From sequence record DRR723986_6333: DNA of 32,951 nucleotides; one strand, 5' to 3'. The translations under genes and the position numbers were made by a program. The notes under the pieces are model-generated. The model was not told where the DNA came from. It worked only from the letters and a program-made list of their open reading frames with translations, and made no database searches. Shown here piece after piece: positions 5,639 through 32,878 of the stretch. Every line of letters starts with the position of its first letter. Positions within the stretch are counted from its first letter, which is position 1.

Positions 5639-8600
5639 TGCGACGGGTCCTGCTGACAGGGGGTGGAAAGGTCCATCAACTGATCCAGATCCTCGGTCCC
5701 CAGATCGTCGGAATAGATGCCGGTTGCCCCTTGTCGCAGCAGGCAGGCTGCGGTGGCCCGGTCGTTGATGGTGTGAACATAGACCGGCATTCCGGTTGCG
5801 CGTGTCACCGCGCCAAGCAGGCCATCTTCGGCTACGGCAAGCGGCATGGTCAGAGCATCCGGCCTGTAGGCGAGGGCGGCTTCGATAACCCTGTCGGGGT
5901 CGCTGCCGAAGCGGTAAAGCGTCCAGATAACCTGCTTGAACCCAAGCTCGCGATAGAGGGCAATCTCTTCCGGCTGATAGGCTTGGGGGACGAACTGCGC
6001 AAGGATATCGGGATGCCTGGTTGCGATGATCTCATGCGCGGCGGCGGGGTCGCTTTTGACATCGGTCACAATCAGGATGTTCGGGTTTGCCCGCATCCAT
6101 CCCGCCAGCCCGTCAAGATCGCAGTTCCTGGGCTGATCGGGACTGGCGGCAAGCAGTTGTCGAAACTGGCCAAGATCGAGGGGCGAATCCGTTGCTGCCC
6201 CGAACCGGCTGGTGAAGCTGTCCTGCCAGTCATGAAGGCAGACCAGTTCCCCGTCGGCGGTCCAACTAAAATCGATCTCGAACACGTCGAACCGGGCGAG
6301 ATTGGCGGCCATGGCCTCAAAGGAATTGGATATCGCGATGCCGCCAAGGCGTCCGCCCCCATGCGCAACAGAACGGCCAAAGAGGGCGGGCTGCGTGGCT
6401 CTTAGCCGGAGGGACTGGACCATCAGGCCAAGCGTGCGGGAGTCGTCACTGATTTCGCGCGCGGCAGGGCATGCCAGCGTCGCCCCTTGCAGTGACAGAA
6501 CCAAAGGGATCGCGCGGCCCCGTGGTAGCGTGCTGACGTCAATTACCAGAGGGGCGTTGATTCCCGTTTGCTGCCTGCCGATCGTGGTGCCCTGATAGGA
6601 CACGGCGACATCGACTGTGTCTGACTCGAAGGCGGCTGTTGCCACGGCCAGTGACAGTGAAGCCGGCTGGTCCGGCAGCACAACTTCGAAGGTCGCGACC
6701 TCTGCGCCCATCCAGCGCCCGAACTCCTCTTGCGGCCACCACCCGCCAGCGAAGGACACCCCCCTTGTGGCCATCGCCTCGGCCAGCGGCACGATCCTGT
6801 CGACCGGCAGGGCGGTCTCTGCGGGCAGGGGGGGCTGCGCGGCTGAGGGGGGCTGGCATCCCTCCTCAACGGCGACCGCTTCTGCCGGGACCGCAGGCAC
6901 GGGCGTTGCAAGCGCCTGAAAAGGCGCAGGTTCGTCGGCGATGACGTCGCCAAGCATCGCGCCGATCAGCATGGCCGCCATCTGACGGGGATCGGTGCCG
7001 CTGCCTTGTGCCGAAGGGCAGGTCAGCGCGTCGCCACCGGCAATCAGGTCGAACGTGACGGGCTGCCCCCTCGGCACACCAGTCAACCGGGCCGAGATCG
7101 CGTCGCGCCCGGACAGGGTTGTCTGGGTCAGGATACGCCCATCAAAGGCAAGCTGGATGTTTCGGCTGCCCGGCACCGCAAGCTCTAGGGTCAGTTGCAG
7201 GTCGTTCGCAGTCTCGGGCAGAACCAGAGTCAGACGGGCGTCACGCGATCCCATCCAAAAACCGCCGGGTTCCTGTCCCCACCAGCCCGTGGGAAACCCG
7301 ATAGGCCCGGCCAACGCGCCGCCGGATATGCGCTGTCCGATTTGCAGGGGAGCGACCGGGGCAGGTGACGCGGGGGGCGTGGGGACGATGCATTGCCGCG
7401 TTTCGGCGGCGGGTGCCGCGATGGCGACGACACGATGCTCAACCACGTCATCCTCGTGCTCAACTTGCCTGGATGGCTCGGCTCGGGCCAGGGCCGCCGG
7501 GGCGGCCGCGATTGTCGCCTGGCCGGGCGCTGCGGCTGGTTCTTCGGCGACGACGGGTTCGGCCAGCGGGTCGAGGAAGACGCGGAGACGTGGAAAGTGC
7601 CGGTTCGCGAACTCTGCAATGCGGTGATCCGGCCCGATCACTGCAAGATAGGGTTCGCGCATCTCTGAAGCGCGTAATTCGGGCAATGAAAGCCCCTGTA
7701 GGACCGGAGTGATCGGTGCGATCTCGGGTCCGCAGAACGCCGTGTCGTGAACGGCGAGAATATGGGCGATGAACCTGTCGCGTGATGCGTCGATCTGATC
7801 CGCCCATAGGGAATGAGAGGCCGGATCGAACCCGGTTGCACATTGGTCCAGACGGTCGAGAATTTCGGCGCGCCCGTCAGGGCCTATTCCGATCAGGCTC
7901 AGGCCGCGCTGCAGAACCCAGTCTTCACCGGCCTCAAGGCTTTCGGTGGTCTGACGTCTGACGAAGCTGGCCCCGGCACCGAAGGCAGAGGACTGCAACA
8001 GGATCCCGCGTTCTCCGGTGGCCAGCGATGAGATGGTGATCGGCAGGGGCAGATCCCCGCGTGCTTGCCCGATCCGGATCAGCCCGTCTGCTTCCTGTTC
8101 CGCCGAAACCGCAGTTGCATTCGTCAGCATTTCGACCAGTTGCTGCCGGGAGAAAAAGCGCGATTGAGTGAGCGGGTGCAAGGCCGCGCCGGTTGTGCGG
8201 TCTCCGGTCAGAAGGCAGAGCCCGTCCTGATCGGCCATGCCCGCCTCTGGGGCCATCAGGCCAAGTGCGTGGCAGTCATCAAACCAGAAATAGCGCGTAC
8301 CGGCAGGCAGGTTCAGCGCAGTCTGCGACAGGGTCTCTTGCGCGCGCAGATCCCCGAGGGTCGCCTGCGAGATCGCTTCGCCCTCGTCAAAGGCAAACAG
8401 GGCGGGCAGCCGAAACCTGCTGTGGCCGAACTGGACCTGCCCGGCCTCGGTATTGGCGTATAGCCCGTCCGACAGATCCGGATAGGCCCAAAGCCGCGCA
8501 TAAACGGATTGAAAGCCCATGACGTGATTGTTCAGGGCGCGCTGATCGTCGGCGGCGACGTCGAGCGTTTCGGGCAGGGTTGGCGAAGCGCCAAGCAGAT

Positions 8601-9966
8601 CGGCGCCAAGCCCCATGCGCGGTACGTCGAAGCCAAGATAGCTGAGCAGGGTCGGGCCGATATCGAGTGTCGTGCCGCGCCGGTCAATCGTCCGGCCGGG
8701 TTGGTCCGTCTGCCGGTCCAGGATCATGAACAGGTTGCGCCGGGGACCGGCTGTCAGCAGGTCGGTGACGCTGTTCACCATCGCCAGATGATCGGACATG
8801 ACCGCAATGACGGTGTTGTCGCCATTGGGCCCCGACAGGATGTCCTCGATGAATTGCCCCGCGAGATGGTCCGCGCATTGCACCGAGTTAAGCATCGGGT
8901 TGTCACCGTCGCCAAAGCGCATCCCTGCGCAGGCCCGGTTGGTATCCGCATGACCATTGGGATGGTGGGTGTCGAGCGTCAGCAGGGTCAGAACGAAGGG
9001 CGATCCGGCCTCTGACAGCGTGTCAAACCGTTCCCGCGCCAGGTCGAACAGGGTATCGTCCTGCAAGCCCCATTCAGCGATGTAATCGGGGTCGTCCAAT
9101 GTGGGCAGCAGCTGGTCCAGCCCGGTGACCTGGTCATAGGCATGACTTTCATAAAACGCCCCTTTCCCTGCGAATTCCACCGAGGCCCCGCCAAGATAGG
9201 ACAACGTGTAGTCGGCCTCGCTCAGAATATCGCCCAGACAGGTCGCCCCTGACAGAAACCGGCTGACGCGCATCGAATTGGCCCCGCCTGACAGGATCAG
9301 CGGCACCCCGCATTGCGACGCCACCATGCCCCCGACGGTGAACCCCGCGCCGGTGGTTTGCCCGATATCGGTGAAGGACATCGCCTGTCCCTCCAGCGCG
9401 GACAGACGGGGCGTCAGACCGGCAAAGCGGCTGTCATCCAGATAGGTGCGTTCAAGGCTTTCAAGATAGAGGATCACAAGGTTGCGGGGCTGTTCGGGAC
9501 CGTCTGGATCCAGTTCGGGATCGACAAAGCCCTGGCTTTGCTGATCCACCATGGCAAAGCGCAGCGCGTAGGAGGCGGTTGCCGTTGAAACCGGGTGCAG
9601 GGCCAGCGCGCCGATGACCAGCGACAGGATGGCGATATCCCAGGCGCGATTGCGGGTCAGCGCGCCGGGCCGCAGCCAGCGCCGCCCCCACCACAATCCA
9701 GCACCGACACCTGCGACCGCCAACACTGCGGCGATCATCGAGCCTGCATATTGGCTGATGTCACCGCCCTCAAGGCCGGTGCGCATGTGGTAGAACACCG
9801 CCCCGTTGACGCCTTCGCCGGTGATCTGGGTCAGTCCGATCTGTATGCCGGTCAGAACAACCAAGCTCAGACATCCGATCTGGACGGCCCATGTCAGCCA
9901 CCGTGCATGGCCAAAACGGCGAAGCAGCGCAATTGCGGCAAGCAGGACAAAACTGGAAACGAGCAT
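5635..9966 (-). CDS. OpgB/MdoB-like phosphoglycerol transferase (LTA-synthase/sulfatase fold) fused to extra domains and a C-terminal glycerophosphodiester phosphodiesterase (GDPD) domain
   Basis: N-terminal TM helices; OpgB-like motifs YLESLERTY, FTVGGMVASQCGVPL, WGLQDD, TLDTHHPNG, SDHLAM. C-terminal AHGGG..SNS.EA..FEIDFSWTADGELVCLHDW..VTDVK..YVHTIND..GIYSD. Confidence 0.85.
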   Translation of the reverse strand: MLVSSFVLLAAIALLRRFGHARWLTWAVQIGCLSLVVLTGIQIGLTQITGEGVNGAVFYHMRTGLEGGDISQYAGSMIAAVLAVAGVGAGLWWGRRWLRPGALTRNRAWDIAILSLVIGALALHPVSTATASYALRFAMVDQQSQGFVDPELDPDGPEQPRNLVILYLESLERTYLDDSRFAGLTPRLSALEGQAMSFTDIGQTTGAGFTVGGMVASQCGVPLILSGGANSMRVSRFLSGATCLGDILSEADYTLSYLGGASVEFAGKGAFYESHAYDQVTGLDQLLPTLDDPDYIAEWGLQDDTLFDLARERFDTLSEAGSPFVLTLLTLDTHHPNGHADTNRACAGMRFGDGDNPMLNSVQCADHLAGQFIEDILSGPNGDNTVIAVMSDHLAMVNSVTDLLTAGPRRNLFMILDRQTDQPGRTIDRRGTTLDIGPTLLSYLGFDVPRMGLGADLLGASPTLPETLDVAADDQRALNNHVMGFQSVYARLWAYPDLSDGLYANTEAGQVQFGHSRFRLPALFAFDEGEAISQATLGDLRAQETLSQTALNLPAGTRYFWFDDCHALGLMAPEAGMADQDGLCLLTGDRTTGAALHPLTQSRFFSRQQLVEMLTNATAVSAEQEADGLIRIGQARGDLPLPITISSLATGERGILLQSSAFGAGASFVRRQTTESLEAGEDWVLQRGLSLIGIGPDGRAEILDRLDQCATGFDPASHSLWADQIDASRDRFIAHILAVHDTAFCGPEIAPITPVLQGLSLPELRASEMREPYLAVIGPDHRIAEFANRHFPRLRVFLDPLAEPVVAEEPAAAPGQATIAAAPAALARAEPSRQVEHEDDVVEHRVVAIAAPAAETRQCIVPTPPASPAPVAPLQIGQRISGGALAGPIGFPTGWWGQEPGGFWMGSRDARLTLVLPETANDLQLTLELAVPGSRNIQLAFDGRILTQTTLSGRDAISARLTGVPRGQPVTFDLIAGGDALTCPSAQGSGTDPRQMAAMLIGAMLGDVIADEPAPFQALATPVPAVPAEAVAVEEGCQPPSAAQPPLPAETALPVDRIVPLAEAMATRGVSFAGGWWPQEEFGRWMGAEVATFEVVLPDQPASLSLAVATAAFESDTVDVAVSYQGTTIGRQQTGINAPLVIDVSTLPRGRAIPLVLSLQGATLACPAAREISDDSRTLGLMVQSLRLRATQPALFGRSVAHGGGRLGGIAISNSFEAMAANLARFDVFEIDFSWTADGELVCLHDWQDSFTSRFGAATDSPLDLGQFRQLLAASPDQPRNCDLDGLAGWMRANPNILIVTDVKSDPAAAHEIIATRHPDILAQFVPQAYQPEEIALYRELGFKQVIWTLYRFGSDPDRVIEAALAYRPDALTMPLAVAEDGLLGAVTRATGMPVYVHTINDRATAACLLRQGATGIYSDDLGTEDLDQLMDLSTPCQQDPSQ

Positions 9967-10220: not shown

Positions 10221-11630
10221 TCAGGCCCTTGCGTAGATATCCTCGTATCGCACGATATCGTCCTCTCCAAGGTAACAGCCGGTCTGTACTTCGATCAGAC
10301 GAAGCGGCAGCTTTCCGGGGTTTTCGAGTCGATGAATTTCACCAAGCGGAATGTAGACGGACTCGTTTTCACTCAGCAGCTTCACCGTGCTGCCGACCGT
10401 GACCGAGGCCGACCCTTCGACGACCACCCAATGTTCGGACCGGTGGAAATGGCTTTGCAGCGACAGTCGTCCGCCGGGCTTTACGACGATGGATTTGACC
10501 TGGAACCGAGGGGCGAGGGACAGCGTTTCATAGTGGCCCCAGGGCCGTTCCTCGCGGCGATTGCCCTCTGCCTGCGGCCAGCCGCGCGCCTTTGCGACCG
10601 AGACGGCCAGTTTGACCCCGTCCGCGGTGGCCATGTCCGCCACCAGAACTGCGTCGCGGGTCGCGATTGCAGCAATATTCCTCAGCCCCACGCCGATAAC
10701 CGCGATTTCGGGGTCGGTTGAAGACAACAGGCTGTCGCGGCAATCAATCGCCTGTGCCTTTCCCTGACAGACAACACCCTTGTCGTCCTGATCAGAGATC
10801 TCCCACAAGGCCCGCCAACTGCCGAGATCGGACCAACCGGCGTTCAACTGCACGACGCACCCGGTCTCGAATTCCATCACCGCGTGATCAATGGACAGGG
10901 ACGGTGCCTTGGCGAAGTCCTTTCCAAGGCGCAGAAAGTCCATATCGGGGACCAGGTCCGCAACAGCGGCTTTTGCCGCAGCCAGCACGTCGGGCGCATG
11001 TTTTGCCATTGCGTCATACATGCGCTGCGCAGTGAACAGGAACAGGCCCGCATTCCAAAGATGCTCGCCCCCTGCAACCAGTTGCTCGGCCTGATCCAGG
11101 CATGGTTTTTCGATGAACTGACGGAATCGGCGGGCCGACCCTGGCGTTGTGCAGGGGTCCGCATGAATATAGCCGTAGCCGGTTTCGGCATGATCCGGGA
11201 CGACCCCGAACACGACGATTTCACCTTGGCGGGCGGCGACCACAGCCTCGCCCAGGGCGGCTGCGAATTGCATCTGGTCCTCGATGTGATGATCGGCCGG
11301 GGCGATCAGCAACAGCCGATCCGGGTTTTCGGCCATTGCGTGGACGACAGCCACCGCCACCGAGGCCGCGGTATTTCTGCTTTCGGGTTCCAGCATGATC
11401 GCGCAGCCCTTGGCCGCAATGTCCTGCAACTGTTCCGCAACTGTGAACCGGTAGGTTGACTGCGTGACGATCAGAGGGGCGGCGCAGCCTGCATCCTCCA
11501 GCCGCTGAACGGTCGTTTGCAACGGAGAGAGAGCGCCATTGAGACGGCAGAACTGCTTGGGGCGAGAGGTGCGCGACAAGGGCCAGAGCCGAGTGCCGGT
11601 GCCGCCGGCCAGGATGACGGGAATAATCAT
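10221..11630 (-). CDS. manC: Mannose-1-phosphate guanylyltransferase / mannose-6-phosphate isomerase (type II)
   Basis: PVILAGGTGTRLWPLSR..PKQF, EPESRNTA, ETGYGYI, FIEKP, WNAGLF, GWSDLGSW; cupin RPWG..LSLQSHFHRSEHWVVVEG. Start is ATG 11630 or GTG 11642. Confidence 0.95.
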   Translation of the reverse strand: MIIPVILAGGTGTRLWPLSRTSRPKQFCRLNGALSPLQTTVQRLEDAGCAAPLIVTQSTYRFTVAEQLQDIAAKGCAIMLEPESRNTAASVAVAVVHAMAENPDRLLLIAPADHHIEDQMQFAAALGEAVVAARQGEIVVFGVVPDHAETGYGYIHADPCTTPGSARRFRQFIEKPCLDQAEQLVAGGEHLWNAGLFLFTAQRMYDAMAKHAPDVLAAAKAAVADLVPDMDFLRLGKDFAKAPSLSIDHAVMEFETGCVVQLNAGWSDLGSWRALWEISDQDDKGVVCQGKAQAIDCRDSLLSSTDPEIAVIGVGLRNIAAIATRDAVLVADMATADGVKLAVSVAKARGWPQAEGNRREERPWGHYETLSLAPRFQVKSIVVKPGGRLSLQSHFHRSEHWVVVEGSASVTVGSTVKLLSENESVYIPLGEIHRLENPGKLPLRLIEVQTGCYLGEDDIVRYEDIYARA

Positions 11631-11682
11631 GTCAGAGGTCACGTCGAAATCACTTTCAGGTTGAGGAAGGGGTGAAGGGTTG

Positions 11683-12987
11683 TCAGGACGCGCGCCGCAT
11701 TGCGCGCGCCACAAGGGCAATCGAGACAAGTAGAAGCGCGCCCTGCACGGTGGCTTTTGTGGCCATCATCGCGCCGATCCCGCCTTGACTGCCGCCAATC
11801 CAGAGCGCGGCAATCGACAGGGGAAGCGCGCAGATCGCCACGAAGATGCCACTTCGGTCGCCGAGGGCTGCAAGAAAGGTCGCGGCGAGATATGTGCCGG
11901 TGAAAGAGATACCGGCCAGCACGGCGTACAGCAGATACGGGGCCGCAGGGACGTAGGCGGGCCCGGCCACCAGTTCGACCACGACAGAAGGGGCCAGAAG
12001 CGCAATCGCCGTCAGGATCACACCAGAGCCGGCGATCAGTGCGATCACCGGAAGGGCAGGCCGCAAGGTGGGACGCCCTTCACGCGCGGCTGCGGTGACC
12101 ATCGGCAGCAGGATCCCCGACAGGCCGAAGAACGCATAGAACTGGATACGCTGGATCAGGGTGAGCCCGGCGACCAGCCCAGCCTCATGCTCGGGCAACA
12201 GGGCTGCGGCCAAAAGAACGTCTCCGTCGAGATGGCCGACCATGGCCAGTTGCAGGATTGCGAACGGCCAGGCCAGAGCGACGATGCCGCGCATCAGGCC
12301 GGCCATGTCTGCAGGCTCTTTGAGGTCGGAGCCGCGTGATGACGCGGCCCCGCGCACCGGCAGCCAGCCAGCATAGACCGACAAGGCAATGGCAGCCACG
12401 ATGCCGGCCACACCAAGGTCAAGGGACCATGCCATAAGCGCGCCGCCCAATCGGACGATCATTTCCAGATTGGTGGACAGCACGATGTCTCGCATCGACA
12501 TTTGGCCGAGCGCGGCGCCCCGGGCAATGCACAGCGGGGCAGCAACGGGCAGGATCAGCAGCAGGATGGGAAGCAGGATGTCCGACCCCAGGCCGAGGGT
12601 CTCGGACACGCCGCCAGAGATCGCAATCAGGCCCAGTGGCACGACCAGAACCCCGGAATACAGCGCGCTGAGCTTGTTCAGGCGGGACAGCGCCGCGCGG
12701 GTCCGGTTCTTGTCTGCCCCGTCGGCGACCATCTGGGAAACAGCCAGTTGCGCGGCGCTGATCACGGATAGCATGGCCAGCTTGAGCGTCAGGATGACCA
12801 TGAGATCGTGGAAAGCCGCCGGGCTTAGCAAACGGCTGAAAATCATGTTGAACGCAAGATTGCCCGCATTGGCGAGGTTTGTTGCAATGAAGGTGACCAG
12901 CGCCGGGCTTGCCAGCGCCAGAAAGGCGGTCTGCACGCCAAGGCGGACCCGGCCCGCCGGGGCTTCGTATACGGAGGCTAAGGACAT
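11683..12987 (-). CDS. Polysaccharide/oligosaccharide flippase (Wzx/MOP superfamily)
   Basis: 434 aa with roughly 12 hydrophobic segments; NAGNLAFNMIFSRLL, RGAALG, LDGDVLLA; located in a glycosyltransferase cluster. Confidence 0.75.
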   Translation of the reverse strand: MSLASVYEAPAGRVRLGVQTAFLALASPALVTFIATNLANAGNLAFNMIFSRLLSPAAFHDLMVILTLKLAMLSVISAAQLAVSQMVADGADKNRTRAALSRLNKLSALYSGVLVVPLGLIAISGGVSETLGLGSDILLPILLLILPVAAPLCIARGAALGQMSMRDIVLSTNLEMIVRLGGALMAWSLDLGVAGIVAAIALSVYAGWLPVRGAASSRGSDLKEPADMAGLMRGIVALAWPFAILQLAMVGHLDGDVLLAAALLPEHEAGLVAGLTLIQRIQFYAFFGLSGILLPMVTAAAREGRPTLRPALPVIALIAGSGVILTAIALLAPSVVVELVAGPAYVPAAPYLLYAVLAGISFTGTYLAATFLAALGDRSGIFVAICALPLSIAALWIGGSQGGIGAMMATKATVQGALLLVSIALVARAMRRAS

Positions 12988-12990
12988 CTG

Positions 12991-13776
12991 TCAGATTGCC
13001 TTGCGGATCGCGCCTTGAGCGCCCTGGGCGTCAAGATGGGCGCGTGCGTCCAGGCGAAGCTCTGCTATCAGGCGCAACATGCGGATGCCGCTTGAAAAGA
13101 TGGCACTTGCCGACACTTTCGACCCGGGCACTTCGCTCCATTCCGCAAGGGGCTGTTCGTAGAAGCGCAGGTTGGCCTTCTTTGCCTTTTCGCAGCTGGC
13201 AATGCGCGCAAAAAGTTCGACATCGAACAGCCAGCCTGCGGTGAACGGCGTAGAGATTGCCTGCGTCAGGGCCGGGGTGGCGCGGAACATCTTTGCTCCG
13301 CATTGGGTGTCCGCAATTGGCAGGCCGATGGCCAGCCGGGCCAGACCCGCGCAGATCCGTGAAACGATGCGGCGCGGTATGGTCCGCTCGACCCGGTGTC
13401 CCAGCATCTTGCGCCTGGATCCGAAGATCACCTCGATATCCGGCTGGCGCAGCGCAATGCGCATGAAATCCTCCACAAGATAGAGGGGGGTTGCCAGATC
13501 GGCGTCCCAATAGGCGACCAGATCGGCCCCGTCCTCGAGCGCACGGCCAAGCCCCGCTCGCACGGCCTCGGCCTTGCCGCCGTTCCGGGTCAGGTCCAGC
13601 ACCTCGATGCGGCCGGGCCGCGCCTCGGCCAGGGCTGTCAGTTTTGCAAGCGACCCGTCGGTGCTGCCATCATTCACAAGCAGCAGGCGCGTGCTGACAG
13701 ACGTATCGATGAAGGTCAGGAAATGCTTGCTTTGGAGGCGCTGTGCCTCGTTGTAGCAGGGAACGACAACGGTCAG
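12991..13776 (-). CDS. GT2 glycosyltransferase, polyprenyl/dolichyl-phosphate sugar synthase-like; start codon unresolved
   Basis: VNDGSTD, NGGKAEAVR.G, YWDADL (DxD), FGSR, DTQCGAKMF, WLFDVE. The frame extends upstream of the track start (13677) through LTVVVPCYNEAQRL, but has no ATG/GTG/TTG before the in-frame TAA near 13877. Confidence 0.8.
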   Translation of the reverse strand: MTVVVPCYNEAQRLQSKHFLTFIDTSVSTRLLLVNDGSTDGSLAKLTALAEARPGRIEVLDLTRNGGKAEAVRAGLGRALEDGADLVAYWDADLATPLYLVEDFMRIALRQPDIEVIFGSRRKMLGHRVERTIPRRIVSRICAGLARLAIGLPIADTQCGAKMFRATPALTQAISTPFTAGWLFDVELFARIASCEKAKKANLRFYEQPLAEWSEVPGSKVSASAIFSSGIRMLRLIAELRLDARAHLDAQGAQGAIRKAI

Positions 13777-13789
13777 TTTATGAGTGTTT

Positions 13790-13808
13790 ACCCCGTAGGT
13801 TACGGGGT
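13790..13808. repeat. Perfect 8-bp inverted repeat ACCCCGTA-GGT-TACGGGGT
   Basis: Read directly; it sits just upstream of the GT2 N-terminal motif and overlaps a GGGGT SD-like sequence on the minus strand. Confidence 0.7.
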
Positions 13809-13983
13809 GTACGGGATGGGCGCCAATCCGTTCTGCCGGCGAAAATGCGTTACTCGTTTTAAATCTGAGAAGGTGTTATGGCGCAGTTTCTCAGAGGTAT
13901 TTGAGCAGAGGCACATTTTGGCGCTGCAAAGGATGAGAAGTCAGACCCCGGGGGAGAGCAGGCAGCGCACAAGAGATGCGCTG

Positions 13984-13999
13984 CTATACTTTTGGTTAT
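13984..13999. promoter_or_regulatory. Candidate operator, copy B (CTATACTTTTGGTTAT; reverse complement ATAACCAAAAGTATAG)
   Basis: 14/16 identical to copy A; upstream of GT2-flippase-manC; overlaps the GT4 stop codon. Confidence 0.5.
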
Positions 14000-15194
14000 T
14001 GAAAGTCGGGCAGGGCAGAGCGCACGCCGAAAATCTTGACCATGTGCCAGTGCGCGATATCGCTCATCGGGATCGCTTCGACGGCGATTCGGTTGGCCTT
14101 TGCAATGCGATTGCATTCAGCGCTATCCGAAAGAAGCGATTTCATCCGGTCGGCAAGGTCACGGGCATCGCCGGGTGCGAAATGGCTGCCGGTCAGGCCT
14201 TCGTCTTCGCACAGGTCGATGAAATCACCGATCCTGGGAAAGATCGGAACAGCCCCAAGGCTGGCGGCCTGATGCAGCACCCCGGACGAGCCGGTCGTCG
14301 CCTCGTAGTCGAACACCGCAAGGCGACCGCTTTCGAAAAAGCCCGGAACATCTTCCTCGGCGACATATCCCGCGAATTGCACGGCGGGATCATCCTTGCG
14401 CTTTAGGGCCAGGTTCGCGACGTAACCGGGCGTGTTCGGGTGATCTGTGCCGCCGATGACCAATTCCACCGGGGGCGTTTCCGGGTCTTCACGCAGAATG
14501 TCGAAGGCGGCAAGAAGGGTTTCCAGCCGCTTGTACGTTCCGAATTTCCCCATCGTGACGATCCGCATGGGACGCGCCTCGATCGGCACCCAGGGCCTTG
14601 CGCCAACATTGAACGTGCCGTGCGGGACCAGCGTCACATCCGCGTTTGGCACACGATCCGACAGCAGGTGGAATAGCTGCGCAGGGTCACGGTCATGTAG
14701 TTGGCCCAACTCATCACGCGGGTGATGATGGCACCACCGGCTGACACGACGGCCTGTCGAAGCCGCTGTCCTTTCAACTGGGTGGAGTCCAGATCAATAC
14801 CGGCAATCACGTTATGGGCGACAATGCCGCTTTTCCACCCCATCAGGCGGCTCAGGGCAGGGCTCATCAACCCAAGCGCGGCGGGGATTTCCCGGTCTCC
14901 GAAACTGGCGGATTGCAGGTTGTAGATCACCGCATCGGGGCGTTCCGCCCGCATTGCCCTGAGCAGGGAAATACATGTCGTCGTGCGGTTGAAATCCCAC
15001 ACCCGCCGTACGCGGATTTTGGGGCCGAGATCCTGCTCGGCCATTGGATGGGGCAGGCGGTCGGCCAAAACGATCACCTCGGACACGTCCGGATGGCTCG
15101 CTAGGGCATTGGCAAAATGCAGGCCGTATTCATTGAGGCTGCGCTGTCCCGGCGGGAAGGCAGAGACGAGGGCGATCCGATATCCTTTGGTCAT
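13996..15194 (-). pseudogene. GT4 (GT-B fold) glycosyltransferase split by a 1-base frameshift near 14670-14675
   Basis: 5' ORF 14634-15194 (IALVSAFPP..SLNEYG..TVTLRSY) and 3' ORF 13996-14709 (HLLSDRVP..VPHG..MGKFGTYKRLE..FAGYV..SSGVLHQA) join into one GT4 if one base is added at TAT-TCCAC. Could be a sequencing error. Confidence 0.78.
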
Positions 15195-15204
15195 CGAATT
15201 TCCT

Positions 15205-16740
15205 TTACGGTTGAGATGAGAGAAAAGCGTCGAACTCTAGATCCACCACGTCCGCTGCCGGTTTGCGTGTTCCGTCGAGAGCGAGCAGACCGAAGCGGGA
15301 TTGCAGACGGCGAACCCAGGGAGAAAGCCCGATTGCAGCGGGGTCGGGGTTGTCGAAATCATGCAGGGTCCAGACGAAGATCCCGTCTGCTGTTGCCAGT
15401 GCCTGCAACCGGCGGGACAGGCGGTCGGCCTGCAGATCCGGGGATGCTGGGAAGATGCCTGCCAGAAGCGAGTAAGAAGTCTCGCCGATCTCGGTCACAT
15501 GCACCGGGCGCTCGCCTGCAAGGGCGCGCACCCGGTTCAGCGCATCCGCGCTCGACGCGACCGCGCCGTAATCGTGGTAGCTGATGATATCGAGGGTGTC
15601 GGCCAGAATGCCCGCGGCCTCGGGGGTCGACCAGCCGATTGTGTAGGGAAGGTCCGGGGCAATGGTGCGGGCTACGCCAAGCATGGCACGCGCCCAGGCT
15701 TCCACCTGTCCCGGATCATCGTGTTCCATGTCGAGATCGGGTTCGTTCTTGAGGTCGACATAGGCGACAGCGCTAGACGCGGCCAGAACGGGCAGAACCC
15801 GCGCCAGCCAATCCGCATCGTTGGCCCATCCGACCGCGCCATAGCCGCCGCGCAGGTCGAACAGTGTCGGGATGACGGACAGCCCCTGCGCCTCGGCAAT
15901 GTCCAGAAGCGCGGCAAGATCGGACAGGGCTCGCGGTGCGGTCGCGGGGTCCAGAAACGGCTCCCGGTGCAAAAAGATCCGCACAGCGTTGGCGCCGATA
16001 TCGGTGATCTGCGCAAAGTCACGCGCGATGATCCGGGCATCGAAGCCGGACCAGAACCCGGTCCAGGGCGTGGTGGCAGGGTAATAGTTGATCCCCGCCA
16101 GTCTGGACGGGACCGGCCTGCCGTCAGCGGCGCTGGCGACAGGCTGCGAGCCGCGCCGTTCATGGCTGAGAATCCGCCAGCCAAAGCGTTCGTTGATCAG
16201 GGTGGTCAGGGTCGTGTCACGGCTGAGGTTGAATTGCAGCAGTTCACCGGTCTCGCCAAGCTGAAAGCGGGCAATCAGGGCATCGGTTTCCACCTGCAGC
16301 AGCGAGCCATCGGCCTGAAAGAAAACAGGACGGGCCGACTGGGTCAGAACCACCATCCGCAGTCCCGATGTGGCAACGGATCGGGTGGCTCGGTCCAGCG
16401 CGACCCCGGTGAAATGATCCTCCAGGCCAAGGGGTATCTCGGTCTCCATCGACACGGCATGCCCGGCCCATGCTTCGGACAGGGTGGTGCCGACCAGATC
16501 CTGCTCGGACGGGCCGAAAACCCGATCCAGCGGGGCAGAGGGTGGCAGCCACCGAACCAGGTTTCCGGACCGGGGCGCCTCGGGGAGCGCGTCATCGAAA
16601 TAGCGATATGTCACATCGCGTTCGGTCGCGTCGGCCAGTGCGCCCGCCACTTGTGTCAGCAGCGCGAACGCGCCCGCGCAAAAGAGACAGAGGAGCAGCA
16701 GCACGCGCGCAAGGCGTCCGATCTTCTGTGCAAGAGCCAT
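15205..16740 (-). CDS. Exported or membrane-anchored glycoside hydrolase, clan GH-A (GH5/GH2-like), with an N-terminal accessory domain
   Basis: N-terminal hydrophobic helix; GINYYP, GANAVRIFL, PTLFD, DLKNEPD (acid/base), ISYHDY, VTEIG (nucleophile), VWTLHD, FGLL..DG..KPA. Confidence 0.82.
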   Translation of the reverse strand: MALAQKIGRLARVLLLLCLFCAGAFALLTQVAGALADATERDVTYRYFDDALPEAPRSGNLVRWLPPSAPLDRVFGPSEQDLVGTTLSEAWAGHAVSMETEIPLGLEDHFTGVALDRATRSVATSGLRMVVLTQSARPVFFQADGSLLQVETDALIARFQLGETGELLQFNLSRDTTLTTLINERFGWRILSHERRGSQPVASAADGRPVPSRLAGINYYPATTPWTGFWSGFDARIIARDFAQITDIGANAVRIFLHREPFLDPATAPRALSDLAALLDIAEAQGLSVIPTLFDLRGGYGAVGWANDADWLARVLPVLAASSAVAYVDLKNEPDLDMEHDDPGQVEAWARAMLGVARTIAPDLPYTIGWSTPEAAGILADTLDIISYHDYGAVASSADALNRVRALAGERPVHVTEIGETSYSLLAGIFPASPDLQADRLSRRLQALATADGIFVWTLHDFDNPDPAAIGLSPWVRRLQSRFGLLALDGTRKPAADVVDLEFDAFLSSQP

Positions 16741-17807
16741 CAGTTGCTGTCCCCGGTCGGTGCAAGCGTCACGATTTCGACCCCACGCGGGGAGGTGACG
16801 CTGAGCGTGGCGGGCAGGGCAGTTGTGGGCAGCGTGATCTCGGTCATGCCGTCAAGCACCCAGCTTTGGGCCTCATGGGGCTGGTTATTGGCGTCGATCA
16901 GACGCACCACAACCGAACTGCCGTCATGCAGGTTGTGACCGCTTGCCGTGGTGAACGGCCCGAGGACAATTCTTGTCGCCTCGATATCGGTGAGGATTGT
17001 AATCCGGGCGCTCAGGGCCGAGCCCGGCAGACTGTCCGCGATGGTCAACCCGATGGCGCGGCTGCTGTGGAACGGAAAATGCATCTGCGCCGTGGCGGTC
17101 CCCGATAGGTCTCGGGTCAGAAGCGGGGCATTGGGCTGACCGCCAATCCAGAGCGCCGGAACCTGCGAAAAGCTGCCATCCGTGTGAGACAACAGAAGGG
17201 TCGACGTGATCCCGTCCGGGATTGTCTGATCGTCCAATGCGGCGGTAACGCGGCCTCGCAGATGCACGACGGTTTCCGGCGACAGGGGTGTTGGCGAGGG
17301 GGACAGATCGGTAGAAAGGCTGGAAAGGGCCGGGGCCACCCGATAGGTTACTCTTTCGGTCTGTCGCAATGCATCGGCGTTGCCGGTTGCTGCCCACGCG
17401 TAGAAGCGGCCCGGAACCGCGCCCGCCGCGACGGCCCGCGCGGCGATGCCGCCCGTTGTGCTAACCAGAGAGGTGCCATCTTCGGCGGTCAAGGCAACCT
17501 CGGTGTCATCCGAGACCAGATTGCCGGCCTGATCCAGAACCAGAGCGGAGATCTGGGCAGCTCCGGTTCCGGCCACGATGCTCTTGTCCCCGAAATGCAG
17601 CAGCAGTGTCTCTGCCGCAGTGGGCAGGATCGTTTCGCCGTCATCGGGCCTTTCCAAAGGCGTAACCAGTCCGGCCCATGTTTGCCGCTCGGGATCGCTG
17701 TCGTCTAGATACAGTCCGAACGCATCGGTCACGATGTCCTGTGCCGGTGCAGACGTGGGGCAGGTCACGCTGATGATGGCCAGAAGGGAAAGGGCAGATC
17801 GGATCAT
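16740..17807 (-). CDS. Secreted beta-rich protein, probable Ig-like (Big/invasin-type) repeats
   Basis: Signal-peptide-like N-terminus; repeated motif LDQAGNLVSDDTEV / LDDQTIPDG / TASGHNLHDGSSV. Start ATG 17807 directly follows the upstream stop (the track starts it at 17825). Confidence 0.55.
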   Translation of the reverse strand: MIRSALSLLAIISVTCPTSAPAQDIVTDAFGLYLDDSDPERQTWAGLVTPLERPDDGETILPTAAETLLLHFGDKSIVAGTGAAQISALVLDQAGNLVSDDTEVALTAEDGTSLVSTTGGIAARAVAAGAVPGRFYAWAATGNADALRQTERVTYRVAPALSSLSTDLSPSPTPLSPETVVHLRGRVTAALDDQTIPDGITSTLLLSHTDGSFSQVPALWIGGQPNAPLLTRDLSGTATAQMHFPFHSSRAIGLTIADSLPGSALSARITILTDIEATRIVLGPFTTASGHNLHDGSSVVVRLIDANNQPHEAQSWVLDGMTEITLPTTALPATLSVTSPRGVEIVTLAPTGDSN

Positions 17808-17808
17808 G

Positions 17809-20800
17809 TCAGAACTCCGGGTCATGGATCATGGACGAGACGGTCAGCCGCAGCGCCGCATAGCCGCCCGCACCGTCCAGCGGGATCGTCCCGATGGTGG
17901 GGTCCGGCAGGTCATCGGCGCTGAAATCCGGCGTCGCATTGTTGAGCGTCAGGCCATCTGCGGTGATATCGGCCAGCGTTTCGACAGCGCTTTCCAGCGG
18001 GATATCGAATGACACCGGCACGCTTTGGCCCGGGTAGATATTGGCGCCCACAAATCCAGCCTCGGCCCATATCGGCAGGCCCTGCGCATCGAGCAGCAGC
18101 GCGGTCAACCGCGTGACAGAAGCGGTCTCGGTCCCGGTATTGACGGCCAGCGCGGTCAGGCGCAGGACGCCCTCGGTTTCCTCGACACGAATGCCGTTAA
18201 GGGAAATGCCGGAATAATACCCGTCGGTCCCCGTCAAGGCACGGGCGTTCAGGCTTGCGCCGACCGGCTCGGCATCGAGCACCGGAGGCAGGAATTGCGT
18301 CGGGTCATAGCCCTGACCGGGGACCGCATCTTCCAGCGACAGAACAGCTTCGAAGTCGATCCGAAAGCCAGCCGTTTCCCCCGGAAGCAGACGTTGCCCC
18401 CCGGTCGTTCCTGCTCCCTGGCTCAGCAGCGTACGGCCGTCTTCGGCGCGCAAGCCCCCGATCAGGGTCAGCGCGGCGGGGTCCATGTCGAGATTGACCA
18501 CCGAACCGACCATGAACAGCCGGTCCTGATAGCGCACCAGACGCGACGCGGGCACCGCAATCTCGGGCCTGTCCAGAAGGTCGCGGTGCAGGTCAGACTC
18601 GGCCCGTGGCTGCCGCCTGCCGGGTGCCGACCATCCGATCTGGGGTTGCCTGTCCAGCCGATGTGGCGATTGTTCGGGACGCAGCCCGATCGGGGCCAGA
18701 TACCAGGTTCCGTCCCGCTCGACCGTGCGGATGGTCAGGACTTCCTCGCGCAGGTCCAGCGCGGTCAGCCAATCCAGCGTCACCCGCCAATCGGCAAGTC
18801 CGGCGCTCTGCTCGATCAGCTCCACGTCGATATTCGTCAGCTTGCCATAGGACGCGACCAGACCGCCGCGCCAGCGCCAAGCAAAGAGCTGGTCTTCAAG
18901 GTCGGGACGGGTTTCCGGATCCAGCCGGTCAAAGGCTGCAGAGAAGCGGCGGAAGTCGAGATCGTCGAAATACGCGGTCACCACATCTTGGGGGGCAAGC
19001 GGGGTGTTGAGGTGCTGCCACAGGCGGGATGCTCCCCAGGCACCGGCAGCCAGCACCACCATGAAAATCCCGATCACCACCCGACGCACACGCAACGGGT
19101 TGGTGAACCCGGCGGCCGGCAGGATGATCGGGCGATAGCACCGGGCAGGGCGCACAGCCCCCCGGCGAATGACCGATCCGGCAAAGACCAGCCCGGACAG
19201 CAGCAGCATTGCGGGCGGAACAATCCCCCACATCAGGCTTTGAACCCGGCCCAGATCGCGGCGTGCGCGCACTGCCGGAAGCGGGCTGACATCGGGGCGT
19301 TCCCAGACCACGACTCCGTTCTGAAGCCTCAGCAGCCGCCGCCACCCGGCGAAGTGCAGCAGCGGGTCGTAGAACTCGTCGTTGGAAAAGACGTATTTCA
19401 GATGGTAATCATCCGCATTCAGCAGGAATTGTCTGAGCGAACCAAGGCCCGGGATGCCCAGATATTTCGCGTTCTCCAGCCGTTCGACCGAAAACCGGGT
19501 CAGGTCGGGCAATCGGCGGACCGAGTGGTAATTGCCGTCAACCGATTGCGCCTCCATCTGCGCCGACAGATAGGCAAACTGATCGCCAAACCCCAGGGTC
19601 AGGTATCTCCAGCGATCATGATCGTCCGAGTTCATGAACTCCACGATCGGCGTGGGGTTGATGAACTCCGGCTGAGTTTGACGTATCGTGGGAAGGATGG
19701 CGGCGAGAACCGCAACAGCGACGAAGCCCAGAAACAGGCCGCCCACGATGATCCCGCGCGCGGCGCGCCCGAAAGCCCCCACGATCAGCCGGCCGCTGCG
19801 CCCGTTGATCAGCCCGTCGAACACGAGGCCAAGAAACGGGAGGATTAGGATCGTCCCCCAGAAGGTGAAGCGATCCAGCGTCAGGATGTCGAAGGCTCCG
19901 CCAAGGATGGCGCGTGAAATCGGCGTTGTGCCTCCGGTGCCGAGAATGAAGCACAGGAACAGCGCGCCGCCGAGCGGCCAAAGCCGTGTGCGGACGCTTT
20001 TCAGCGCGGCATAGGGGAGGAATAGCAGCGCCATGCCCCAGGGCAGCAGGAAGAAAATAAAACCCAGGTCACGCCGTTCGAGATAGTTTTCACGCGATCC
20101 GTGCGGGATCGGGACTTGGGTGATCGGGTCCGAAATCGACCAGATCCAATAGGGCAGGATGGTCAGGACAATGGCGCAGATGAGGCTGACCGCCAGGATC
20201 AGCCCACGCCCGAGCGGCGGCAGAAACCGGGTGACGTAAGGCCAGAACCGATAGGTCAGTGCTGCACGAACCTGGTCTGCCGGTTTTGAAATCGGGTGCA
20301 GGTCGGTCGTTGCGGTCAGAGCATGAAGGCCGATCGGAATGATGAACAGCACCGCCCCACAGATCGTCGTGACATGATGGGCGGCGGTTGTGGCCGCGCC
20401 GAAAATGACCGCTGCGGCAAAGTTCCCAAGGCCGCCTTCGGCGATCCAGCGATACACATAGGGCATTCCGTTCAGGAAAATCGCAAGTGAGAAGATCGTC
20501 GGAAGCTGACCGAACAGATGGACCGTCTCGGAAATCGCCGAGGATAAGGACAGAAAGATTGCCGCATATCCGGCGGCGACCGGTGGCACCCAAAGCAACG
20601 AGAACCGGTAGACTCCGACGGTCAGCAGGATCAGCGCGAGAAGCTGCACCACCACAAAGGCCGCGCGCAGGGGCATGATCTGCGACAGGGCTCCGATGGC
20701 CATATGCGTGCCGGGGGGGGTAGGAGGTCGTCAGAAACCCGGTATACCAGCGGTCGTCCCAATGATCGAACCAGCTTCGAGCATAGCTGTCGCCAAAGAA

Positions 20801-20971
20801 CATGTGGATGAACGCATCATAAGTGTTGCCATGGGTGAAGGGCAGCAGCCCGCCGTGAAACAACACGGTTGCCGCCAATGCGACGACAAGCAAACCCAAC
20901 CCGGCACGCAGATCCTGCGTGACAGGCTGAACGGTGCCAGTCTGATCATTGGCGGAAAGGGTCATCTTCAT
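17809..20971 (-). pseudogene. Large polytopic membrane protein (GT-C-like / PTPS-related membrane domain, C-terminal FxLYD-like domains), frameshifted at a C8 tract (G8 at 20713-20720 on + strand)
   Basis: 5' part (TYDAFIHMFF..WDDRWYTGF.TTSYPP) is in ORF 20090-20971 and the remainder is in ORF 17809-20703. Removing one C gives TSYPPGTHMAIGAL and about 1053 aa. Many TM segments; C-terminal LLPGETAGFRIDF and NIYPGQSVPVSF repeats. Confidence 0.75.
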
Positions 20972-21023
20972 CCTGTTGTTGGGAAATGGTGGCGCCGGTC
21001 AGCGGGCCTGATCCGGGTCCGGT

Positions 21024-21701
21024 TCAGATCAGCCCGGCGTCGCGCGCGATCATCGCGGCGTGAGTCCGGTTGCGTGCATCGAGCTTGCGGCTCAGGGTCT
21101 TGACGTGGAACTTGACGGTAACTTCCTGAATGCTGTGCATCAGGGCGATTTCCTTGTTGGACAGCCCGTCCGCCAGCCCGCGCAGCACGTCCAGTTCGCG
21201 AGGCTTCAGGCCGAAATCGCCGGGGCTGTCCGCTTGCTGCTGATAGTCGTAGGGCAGGTATTTCTCTCCCGCAGCGATGAACTGAATCGCTGCCGCCAGC
21301 GTTCTGGACGACATGGATTTCGGCAGAAAGCCACTCGCCCCAAGCGCAATCGCTTCCTGCACCTTATGGGGTTGCATGGCACCTGACATCATCGCAACCG
21401 GCACGCCCTTTGCGGCCTCCAGCATCCGCTCCAGTCCGCGCAGATTGTCCATGCCGGGCATCTGGAGATCCAGCAACACCACATCGACAGAGTCCATCTG
21501 GTCGAAAGCCAGCAGCGCCTCGTCGAGAGACCCGACCCCGTAGACTTCCGCCATGCCATTTTGCGACAGGAAACAGGCAATCGTTTCGCGCACAAGGTCA
21601 TGGTCATCCGCCAGAAGCACGCGAAGCGCCGCCGGACCCGCCCCACCAAACGGGGATTGCCGGGGCGGTGTCGTGCGGTCCTGGGATCTGAAAGCAGCCA
21701 T
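21024..21701 (-). CDS. NarL/LuxR-family response regulator (RR2)
   Basis: VLLADDHD, LLDLQMPG, FLPK, GLSNKEIA..QEVTVKFHVKTLSRKLDARNRTHAA; AAAGGA RBS before the ATG. Confidence 0.92.
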   Translation of the reverse strand: MAAFRSQDRTTPPRQSPFGGAGPAALRVLLADDHDLVRETIACFLSQNGMAEVYGVGSLDEALLAFDQMDSVDVVLLDLQMPGMDNLRGLERMLEAAKGVPVAMMSGAMQPHKVQEAIALGASGFLPKSMSSRTLAAAIQFIAAGEKYLPYDYQQQADSPGDFGLKPRELDVLRGLADGLSNKEIALMHSIQEVTVKFHVKTLSRKLDARNRTHAAMIARDAGLI

Positions 21702-31902: not shown

Positions 31903-32878
31903 CATCCGTATCGTGACCGAGGACCAGCTGCGCCAGGTGGTGAAGCTGGATCTGACCGCCATCGACGTTGTGGAACGCGCGTTTGCGGCTCTGGCCTCGG
32001 GTAAGGTGGTGATGCCGCCGATCCTGTCCATGGACTTGCCTGACGCGAACGGAGAGGTCGACGTCAAAACCGCCTACATTCCCGGCTTCGACGGTTTCGC
32101 GATCAAGGTCAGCCCCGGTTTTTTCGACAATCCAAAGCTGGGACTGCCCAGTCTGAACGGGTTGATGATCCTGTTTTCGGCCAAGACAGGGCTGGTGCAG
32201 GCGGTGTTTCTCGACAACGGCTATCTGACCGATATCCGTACCGCTGCGGCCGGGGCCGTTGCCGCCCGCCACCTTGCCCCCCCGCATGTTGAAACGGCAG
32301 GGGTGATCGGCACCGGCGTTCAGGCGCGGCTGCAAATGAAGGCGGCGCATATGGTCAGGCCCTTCAAACGGCTGCTGGTCTGGGGCCGGGATTCTGCCAA
32401 GGCGGCCGTTTGTGCCGATGACCTGCGCCTTGAACTGGGGATCGAGGTCGACGCGGTATCGGACCCGGCGCGGCTGGTCGCGGAAAGCCAGCTTGTCGTC
32501 ACCACAACCCCCGCCCGCGCGCCTGTTCTCAAAGCCGACTGGCTGCATCCGGGCCTGCACATCACCGCCATGGGGTCTGATCAAGCCGGCAAATGCGAGA
32601 TCGACCCACGCGCGTTGGCCATGGCCGACGCTTATATTTGCGACAGAGTTTCCCAATGCGAAGTGTCTGGAGAGCTGGAGGCCGCGCAGGCCGTCGGTCT
32701 CTGGACCAAGGGCACGCCCGCGGAATTGGGGGCGGTGATCAGTGGCGCGGCCGAAGGGCGGCGCAGCGCCGAGGACATCACCATCTGCGACCTGACCGGC
32801 ACCGGCGCGCAGGACACTGCGATTGCCAGCCATGTCTATGCGCGGCTTGGATCCGCAGGAACCAGCGTCACAAGCTAG
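31892..32878 (+). CDS. eutC: Ectoine utilization protein EutC (ornithine cyclodeaminase / mu-crystallin family)
   Basis: GEVDVKTAY.PG, KVSPGFFDNP..GLPS, LDNGYLTDIRTAAAGA, GTGVQAR, AMGSD, DLTGTGAQD. Confidence 0.85.
   Translation: MAHDIRIVTEDQLRQVVKLDLTAIDVVERAFAALASGKVVMPPILSMDLPDANGEVDVKTAYIPGFDGFAIKVSPGFFDNPKLGLPSLNGLMILFSAKTGLVQAVFLDNGYLTDIRTAAAGAVAARHLAPPHVETAGVIGTGVQARLQMKAAHMVRPFKRLLVWGRDSAKAAVCADDLRLELGIEVDAVSDPARLVAESQLVVTTTPARAPVLKADWLHPGLHITAMGSDQAGKCEIDPRALAMADAYICDRVSQCEVSGELEAAQAVGLWTKGTPAELGAVISGAAEGRRSAEDITICDLTGTGAQDTAIASHVYARLGSAGTSVTS

Follow-up and report, generated by a model that had tools for sequence, protein, structure and literature searches.

The window, meaning the whole stretch of 32,951 nucleotides analysed here (record DRR723986_6333; G+C 63%), carries a co-directional row of glycan genes on the minus strand that is syntenic in relatives. 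Its first structural gene, as the initial annotation held, is that of a large membrane protein of the GT-C type. Directly upstream, and likewise syntenic in relatives, lies the gene for a response regulator that combines a receiver domain with a LuxR/GerE HTH (21024..21701, minus strand); the identical protein, P0159, occurs on 12 public contigs. Downstream, on the same strand, follow a conserved 361-aa gene of no named family (16740..17825), whose start overlaps the GT-C stop by 17 nt, a conserved 511-aa gene without a family match (15205..16740), the GT4 and GT2 glycosyltransferase genes described below, a 434-aa membrane protein (11683..12987), one allele of which is named 'O-antigen/teichoic acid export membrane protein' by one source, and a ManC-type mannose-1-phosphate guanylyltransferase / mannose-6-phosphate isomerase (10221..11729). 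The 511-aa and 434-aa genes are full length in both haplotype groups discussed below.

The large protein and its fold

Sequence searches of Pfam, NCBIfam and the PDB with the large protein gave no match, and a protein atlas offered leads only, with 17% of one cluster carrying PF10131 and 46% of a second carrying PF13231. Its structural model (pLDDT 81.8) places the TM1 helix at residues 19-47 and, in the first external loop, the two short helices typical of GT-C architecture at residues 51-63 and 84-93. A VIA comparison over model residues ~12-559 gave Z 20.2-15.4 to STT3, AglB and PglB; STT3 chains scored Z 19-20 (up to 20.2; 443-457 residues aligned at rmsd 4.1-4.7), AglB Z 16-18, PglB Z 15-16 and ArnT Z 13. 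Foldseek returned 23 matches with E <= 0.001 (3e-7 to 1e-3), and all those listed are GT-C enzymes. As modelled, the protein has an STT3/AglB/PglB-like GT-C fold, a type with which PMT, DPY19, ALG9/12, ArnT and AftA/AftD are also grouped. An aspartate after TM1 is a candidate for the conserved acidic residue that GT-C enzymes have at the start of the first external loop: among 43 sequences D50 is invariant and D59 nearly so, both lying just past TM1 in the model. The neighbouring GT2, GT4, Wzx-like and ManC genes fit the setting of a GT-C glycosyltransferase. Unlike STT3, AglB and PglB, the protein has ~490 further residues, which form two TM helices together with an NTF2-like domain and beta-sandwiches. 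Oligosaccharyltransferases proper, which act on a protein acceptor, are marked by a WWDYG-type motif in the periplasmic domain; the motif is not seen in this protein, where an invariant WRYLTLGFGDQ occupies that neighbourhood.

A C8 tract splits the GT-C reading frame

The run of eight G at 20713..20720 of the plus strand, pointed out in the initial annotation, corresponds to C8 on the minus strand, which is the coding one and reads ...ACC TCC TAC CCC CCC CGG CAC... at this point. It spans the last base of the Tyr82 codon, the Pro83 and Pro84 codons and one extra C, so that the tract lies at codons 82-85 and its length sets the reading frame. The +1-nt frameshift is real, with the frame lost after codon 84 of a ~1051-aa protein (about 85 codons by the first estimate).

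The 5' part of the gene, in frame A (20721..20971, minus strand), codes for TM1 and the beginning of the first external loop, with the invariant D50. ATG 20965 (MTLS...) is its likely start, having AGGA upstream at a spacing of 5 nt and being used by public gene calls; ATG 20971 is an alternative. Frame A reads ...WYTGFLTTSYPP, then RHAYGHRSP... past the tract, and this out-of-frame stretch (20090..20712, minus strand) ends at the stop at 20090. The 293-aa frame-A product has no counterpart in the protein collection searched, where only nine N-terminal fragments from other species matched. In the 3' part, frame B (17809..20712, minus strand), the conserved reading is back from GGC at 20712-20710 and continues through the remaining GT-C membrane domain, an STT3-like periplasmic domain, two TM helices, the NTF2-like domain and the beta-sandwich domains. 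The longest ATG-initiated ORF in frame B runs from 20703 to 17809 (964 aa), its first residue being the M of ..THMAIG... Given the point of truncation, any product of this 964-codon frame is missing both TM1 and the invariant aspartate of the loop; a functional shorter protein from the internal ATG 20703, which is without a Shine-Dalgarno-like sequence, was considered and rejected.

A tract one C shorter yields the conserved protein, in agreement with what had been predicted for C7. The intact 1051-aa alleles P0002, P0127 and P0128 read ..TTSYPPGTHMAIG.. here, and alleles at 99% identity pass the site uninterrupted as YPPGTHMAIG, the C7 of these intact alleles being deduced from protein sequence. 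The length of 1053 aa given earlier was counted from ATG 20971; public calls start two codons later, giving 1051 aa.

Tract length in other assemblies and in orthologues

Contigs from all four of the runs examined (X1, X3, X4 and X8; separate assemblies from four studies) carry C8 and no other length, in a comparison made on Logan contigs, which drop rare variants and so place C7 minorities within a sample outside its reach. Each run has a piece that bridges the tract with 0 gaps, at depths of 39.8 (X1), 15.5 (X3), 24.7 (X4) and 8.1 (X8) and with no indels in any. Over 2 kb these contigs differ from the window by 0 (X1), 3 (X3), 3 (X4) and 10 (X8) SNPs, and C8 is therefore present on at least three backgrounds. 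Among the 23 runs listed in all, 11 runs from 6 studies (X8-X18), of which X8 alone was aligned, have a word share of 0.85, as the X8 haplotype has; an identical sequence with C8 would give such a value, but we do not count it as evidence.

Scans of metagenomes and genomes gave 58 loci, none closer than 77% identity, the near-identical intact alleles not being among them. All 56 orthologous loci that cover the tract site are in frame there. The comparison of YPP codons in orthologues, suggested in the initial annotation as a check, went against a switch: C7, the longest run, is found in a single locus (L041), and the other 55 interrupt the run with CCG or CCA. With C7 in 1/56 loci, the tract is not a conserved device. 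What is conserved is the peptide: Y82, P83 and P84, which sit in the first external loop, are invariant among 43 aligned homologues, and the YPPG motif is present in 120/120 homologues listed from other clusters. The C-run exists through codon choice alone, since TAC CCC CCC G encodes the invariant Tyr-Pro-Pro-Gly. G/C runs, this tract included, are no more frequent in the window than chance predicts, with 13, 3 and 1 runs of at least 6, 7 and 8 bases against Markov expectations of 11-15, 2.2-3.5 and 0.45-0.85.

Truncated and intact alleles fall into separate haplotype groups

Truncated 964-aa forms of the large protein are represented by P0122 (2 contigs; JGI and Logan) and P0125 (1 contig), and intact 1051-aa forms by P0002, P0127 and P0128, to which a read-through fragment, P0124 (3 contigs), can be added. 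Unrooted grouping by amino-acid differences gives ((window, P0125), P0122, (P0002, P0127, P0128)). The intact alleles are confined to a separate haplotype group, and a single event is therefore enough to account for the pattern.

The 964-codon frame is open in all three truncated variants. On the window branch 2/3 changes are nonsynonymous, one of them at an invariant Phe: F115C in frame B, shared by the window and the X3 lineage, replaces F202 in full-protein numbering, a position without variation across 43 homologues, and would fit relaxed constraint. X4 and X8, both C8, differ at six positions in the first 334 codons of frame B, and 6/6 differences are synonymous (P ~5e-4 to 1e-3 under neutrality). 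Such signs of purifying selection between the two backgrounds are not expected of a gene dead since their common ancestor. The X8 SNPs are clustered, 9 of them lying within 915 bp on the left and a single one within 1086 bp on the right (p = 0.005, for a breakpoint chosen post hoc); given this clustering, the synonymous differences may have entered by recombination from strains in which the gene works.

The GT4 and GT2 genes are also broken

The GT4 gene is split into two pieces on the minus strand. Residues 1-174 of the N-terminal piece (14634..15194) match an intact 399-aa allele, after which the piece runs into an out-of-frame tail and stops, and the C-terminal piece, in another frame (13996..14667), is identical to residues 177-399 of intact P0164 (100% identity over 94% of the listed ORF). 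The frame change falls between residues 174 and 177 of the intact allele, where a 1-nt loss leaves five bases (14668..14672) in place of the two codons of the intact allele, outside any homopolymer; the intact alleles P0164 and P0288 read ..TLRSYVDLLSDRVP.. at this site. Truncated 186-aa forms are P0138 (2 contigs), P0139 (1) and P0140 (6).

In the GT2 gene the body (12991..13854, minus strand) is identical to the 288-aa P0145 at 285/287 residues from codon 2, and the codon in front of it (13855..13857) is ACG where the intact 288-aa alleles P0142 and P0145 have the start Met. The first canonical start that remains, GTG 13677, would remove the VVVPCYNE strand; 228-aa calls occur as P0141 (1 contig), P0143 (2) and P0144 (6). 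A trace of initiation at the ACG might persist. The best family matches of GT2 are polyprenyl-phosphate sugar synthases (ArnC, PpgS, PgfS), all far under the curated cut-offs.

Neither lesion lies in a homopolymer, and both recur on up to 6 contigs from three sources. Among the longest contigs tabulated, lengths of 22697 and 25028 nt come back for GT-C, GT4 and GT2 alike in their truncated forms, the X4 contig that bridges the C8 tract being of 22697 nt, and lengths of 33754, 95441, 7909 and 5658 nt come back for intact forms only. Linkage of the three lesions is deduced here from equal contig sizes in cluster tables, in which the GT4 call of the 95441-nt contig is not among the members listed. 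On that basis, three lesions in three glycosyltransferase genes are co-inherited, and relatives hold intact alleles of each.

Discussion

We consider it probable that the C8 tract is a fixed, inherited defect, and that the homopolymer is one of three hits by which a lineage as a whole has lost a glycan pathway. A real and inherited one-base insertion would cut the STT3/PglB-like GT-C enzyme after TM1 and the beginning of the first external loop. Ribosomes starting at the true start would read ~207 out-of-frame codons and stop 2.3 kb short of the gene end, and expression of the overlapping downstream genes would probably be weakened too. The insertion itself probably arose by slippage in a C7 run, and decay may have begun, or continued, at this slippage-prone tract. 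The C8 allele appears to be fixed in a widely distributed strain group in which GT4 (1-nt loss) and GT2 (ATG to ACG) would be disabled as well, and a sister strain group appears to retain GT-C, GT4 and GT2 intact. Because the C8 haplotypes also carry the GT4 frameshift and the GT2 start loss, restoring C7 alone would not restore the pathway.

The locus resembles known homopolymer frameshift pseudogenes in its one-base change in the length of a G/C run within an ORF, its inheritance within a clade, the other mutations in the pathway and the intact sister alleles. It differs from them in that the downstream frame is open and that, over part of this frame, two backgrounds differ at synonymous sites only. 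From these two features it follows that the loss is either recent or blurred by recombination.

The initial annotation proposed a phase-variation switch at the tract. Its frameshift, its repair by C7 and the position in the first gene of the cluster all stand; the ON/OFF switch itself is not supported. Under that proposal, reversible slipped-strand switching between C7 and C8, at a rate relevant to the population, would turn the first gene of a surface-glycan cluster, and by polarity the operon, ON and OFF. Poly-G/C phase-variable glycosyltransferase and capsule genes are contingency loci in Neisseria, Haemophilus and Campylobacter. The present locus shares with these an early poly-C tract in a surface-glycan gene, here the first structural gene of its cluster, and the occurrence of in-frame and out-of-frame alleles within a species, both states being found among alleles at 99% identity; the open 964-codon frame and the exclusively synonymous X4-X8 differences would also fit a gene that is periodically ON. 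In contrast to those loci, however, no length heterogeneity appears in the four runs, whose contigs are all C8, and ON and OFF states track haplotypes, splitting cleanly into two groups. The tract is short, in a window where G/C runs occur at chance frequency, and the run is broken in all but one of the orthologous loci. The C8 haplotypes carry two more lesions that no repeat could reverse, and a full-text literature search found no report of homopolymeric phase variation for Rhodobacteraceae. What marks a contingency locus, namely length variation among close relatives (judged here on contigs), an otherwise intact pathway and an excess or conservation of the repeat, was not found, and we regard a phase-variation switch as unlikely. 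A fixed pseudogene with only C8 and no population variation, which the initial annotation had named as the outcome that would count against its proposal, is closely approached at the level of contigs.

We give equally little credence to a history in which C7 was a slippage-prone OFF switch whose OFF state was favoured, spread worldwide and was locked by the later GT4 and GT2 hits, periodic ON states or leaky +1 decoding having kept selection on the frame for a while after the slip, which the all-synonymous differences among C8 backgrounds would then record.

Leaky decoding by itself would make the C8 allele a hypomorph, with some full-length enzyme arising when tRNA-Pro slips by +1 over CCC CCC C on the ribosome, or else through transcriptional slippage along the run. 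CCC-C is a shift-prone sequence. The tract offers two consecutive CCC-C contexts like those of the tRNA-Pro frameshifting described in PMC4519876, and a +1 slip on the second CCC yields exactly the conserved ..YPPGTHM..; the six synonymous differences between C8 backgrounds would again fit continued selection. In PMC4519876, +1 frameshifting in E. coli reaches up to about 1% at the second codon, against a background of <0.003%; this figure applies to the most shift-prone position, beside the start codon, whereas the present site is at codon 84, far from the start, with no stimulatory element and no Shine-Dalgarno-like sequence seen upstream of the tract, so that the comparison with PMC4519876 raises leakiness as a possibility only. 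With GT4 and GT2 broken too, trace amounts of the GT-C enzyme would have no pathway to serve, and one of the invariant Phe residues is no longer present in the window lineage. Leaky decoding is in our view very unlikely.

A sequencing or assembly artefact in a gene that is truly C7 and intact, the error that the initial annotation had also allowed for, is extremely unlikely: homopolymers are the commonest sites of indel errors, and the perfectly matching run X1 may be the window's own source, but the separately built contigs of four runs from four studies, at depths of 8-40 and on different SNP backgrounds, agree on C8, the 964-aa calls appear in both JGI and Logan assemblies, sister strains assemble in frame, and the GT4 and GT2 lesions, which are non-homopolymeric, reappear on as many as 6 contigs drawn from three sources.

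Conclusions

A switch at this tract, if true, would give Rhodobacteraceae their first hint of contingency-type phase variation, a reading which the evidence does not support; the probable lineage-wide gene decay is of an ordinary kind. A fixed defect in a decaying cluster would instead document the natural loss of a glycan pathway, in a species made up of strains with an intact cluster and strains broken in three places, both kinds being recovered from many habitats. For annotation, the public calls of 964 aa, 186 aa, 190-237 aa and 228 aa would be fragments, not genes. The two kinds of strain would provide a natural knock-out and wild-type pair from which to learn the product of an unstudied STT3-like GT-C cluster of marine bacteria.

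Results

A tract of eight cytosines lies at 20720-20713 on the minus strand (G8 on the plus strand), where that strand reads ...ACG ACC TCC TAC CCC CCC CGG CAC GCA TAT GGC.... The initial annotation had described a frameshift here, early in the gene for a large membrane protein, and direct reading of the minus-strand sequence and its frames confirmed it. The frame from ATG 20971 encodes MKMTLS...WYTGFLTTSYPP and continues past the tract with RHAYGHRSPV..., an out-of-frame stretch that stays open until a stop at 20090. A 964-aa ORF starting MAIGALSQ... runs from ATG 20703, the first in the next frame, which is open from a point shortly before the tract as far as 17809. The tract as such is statistically unremarkable: in the window (63% G+C), G/C runs of ≥6, ≥7 and ≥8 bases number 13, 3 and 1, where Markov models of order 2-4 predict 11-15, 2.2-3.5 and 0.45-0.85, respectively. 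Two other 7-base G/C runs occur, at 6828-6834 and 32277-32283, the former within an intact gene for a 1443-aa phosphoglycerol-transferase-like protein.

Compared with other alleles of its species, the large gene in the window is broken. Among 2492 homologues of the 964-aa ORF found by protein search, the top one, the public entry P0002 (1051 aa, 99% identity), reads ...TTSYPPGTHMAIGALSQ... across the site. Its 90% cluster has eight members: three of 1051 aa (P0002, P0127 and P0128), a 170-aa fragment in frame across the tract site (P0124), two C-terminal fragments, and two 964-aa entries that start at the window's internal ATG, P0122 (two contigs, JGI and Logan) and P0125 (one Logan contig). 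By amino-acid differences the window adjoins P0125 and the three intact alleles group together, with P0122 in between, such that one mutational event suffices to explain the distribution of alleles. Nineteen public runs from 12 studies contain ≥50% of the words sampled from 19700-21700, and tract length was read in Logan contigs of four of them, X1 (which may be the source), X3, X4 and X8, at depths of 39.8, 15.5, 24.7 and 8.1. Differences from the window of 3 (X3), 3 (X4) and 10 (X8) SNPs place C8 on at least three backgrounds; the X4 contig that bridges the tract is 22697 nt long, the same as that recorded for P0125.

Alignment of 43 homologues, taken from Rhodobacteraceae, Caulobacterales, Rhizobiaceae, Vreelandella, Acidimicrobiia, Anaerolineae and others, shows no variation at Y82, P83 and P84 and almost none at G85, and YPPG[TS]H is present in 120/120 homologues listed from outside the window's own cluster. 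Of 58 related loci compared, all 56 that cover the tract site are in frame there. Their Pro codons, predominantly CCG or CCA, interrupt the run in most of them; the longest, C7, occurs in a single locus (L041), and C6 in four. The tract encodes an invariant motif yet is no conserved device, the run in the window's species being an accident of synonymous codon choice. In two orthologues from other species, P0129 (260 aa, 36 kb contig) and P0136 (279 aa, 21 kb contig), YPPG is read through and out-of-frame tails follow after approximately residue 235-245; unless these are metagenome assembly errors, the large gene seems to have been broken independently elsewhere too.

The large protein has no sequence match in Pfam, NCBIfam or the PDB. 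P0002 was modelled with AlphaFold2 from the 43-sequence alignment (mean pLDDT 81.8, pTM 0.80). The model gave 23 Foldseek matches in the PDB at E ≤0.001, and those listed were all GT-C enzymes (STT3, AglB, ArnT, AftA, AftD and DPY19). VIA-align Z-scores were highest for STT3 chains (20.2-19.1, with 443-457 residues aligned over model range ~12-559), followed by AglB (18.1-16.2), Pmt4 (16.1), PglB (15.8-15.4) and ArnT (13.3); NTF2-like domains match residues 656-762 (Z 12). In the model the tract falls in the predicted first external loop, past the invariant D50 and flanked by helices 51-63 and 84-93, and the product of the 964-codon frame would be without TM1 and this loop. The gene (17809-20971) and related loci L001-L058 belong to a widespread family (Rhodobacteraceae, Caulobacterales, Acidimicrobiia, Anaerolineae and others) of ~1030-1070 aa, for which Pfam and NCBIfam have no model. 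An STT3/AglB/PglB-like fold (Z up to 20) takes up its first ~560 residues; two TM helices, an NTF2-like domain and beta-sandwiches come after it. The family may represent an OST-like enzyme of bacteria that is uncharacterised.

The neighbouring genes fit a lipid-linked glycan pathway. They include the glycosyltransferase genes GT4 and GT2, the latter with polyprenyl-phosphate sugar synthases as weak best matches; ManC; and a 434-aa membrane protein called an O-antigen/teichoic acid exporter by one source. Downstream of ManC, on the minus strand at 5635-9966, lies the 1443-aa protein, with an OpgB-like phosphoglycerol transferase part (E 1e-100, but below the curated cut-off) and a C-terminal glycerophosphodiester phosphodiesterase-like stretch. 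Gene order (response regulator, large membrane protein, 361-aa gene, 511-aa gene, GT4, GT2, 434-aa membrane protein) is kept in five Rhodobacteraceae loci.

Two further genes of this cluster are damaged. GT4 (15194-13996, minus strand) is split in the window into pieces of 186 and ~222 aa, with residues 1-174 of the intact 399-aa allele in one frame and 177-399 in another; at 14672-14668, outside any homopolymer, five bases stand in place of two codons, a 1-nt loss. The window's 186-aa and 237-aa ORFs form one continuous frame in the five Rhodobacteraceae loci, and L014 has a single 400-aa GT4 gene in their place. Intact 399-aa alleles occur in sister strains (P0164, 100% identical to the window's C-terminal piece, and P0288). 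N-terminal pieces of 186 aa with the same out-of-frame tail are recorded as P0138 (identical to the window, two contigs), P0139 (one) and P0140 (six; JGI, Logan, ENA). The GT2 start site (13855-13857, minus strand) is ACG in the window versus ATG in sister strains. Its frame is open for 288 codons and 285/287 identical to the 288-aa P0145; GTG 13677 is the first canonical start still available, with loss of the VVVPCYNE strand of the fold. GT2 calls are of 228 aa (P0141, one contig; P0143, two; P0144, six) or 288 aa (P0142, one; P0145, two). Among the lengths recorded for the longest contig of each allele, 22697 and 25028 nt are shared by truncated forms of GT4, GT2 and the large gene, and 33754, 95441, 7909 and 5658 nt by intact forms only, the GT4 of the 95441-nt contig being absent among the members listed. 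From these equal sizes in nt, we infer that the truncated alleles of the three genes are linked, as are the intact ones.

Discussion

The best-supported explanation is a slippage-type +1C mutation at the tract of the large gene, which would then have been fixed in a clade losing the whole pathway. This reading is favoured by three hits in three glycosyltransferase genes, and by replacement on the window/X3 branch of F202 of the full protein, an invariant Phe.

Over the first 334 codons of frame B, the 964-codon 3′ part, the X4 and X8 backgrounds differ at six sites, in each case synonymously (P ~5e-4 to 1e-3 under neutrality), which argues against a long-dead gene. Two other readings keep some room on this result: leaky +1 decoding of CCC CCC C (a second-codon CCC-C is given in PMC4519876 as slipping at ~1% in E. 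coli, with a background of <0.003%) and phase variation through periodic reversion of the tract, although either would leave the GT4 and GT2 lesions unexplained. A full-text search found no literature on phase variation with homopolymeric tracts in Rhodobacteraceae, and the switch proposed in the initial annotation is not supported. Sequencing or assembly error is an unlikely source of C8, since in 4/4 runs (X1, X3, X4 and X8) one contig piece crosses the tract with zero gaps and the contigs have no inserted or omitted letters relative to the window.

For a fixed frameshift, the synonymous differences could plausibly derive from a patch imported from strains with a working gene. The X8 SNPs are clustered, with nine in 19700-20614 (915 bp) and one in 20615-21700 (1086 bp; p = 0.005, breakpoint post hoc), which suggests a recombination boundary near the tract and makes such an import plausible.

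In conclusion, the C8 tract represents an ordinary frameshift that is inherited and lies in a glycan cluster undergoing decay. Of further interest are the GT-C family, which is STT3-like and uncharacterised, and the natural polymorphism between intact and broken alleles in the window's species.
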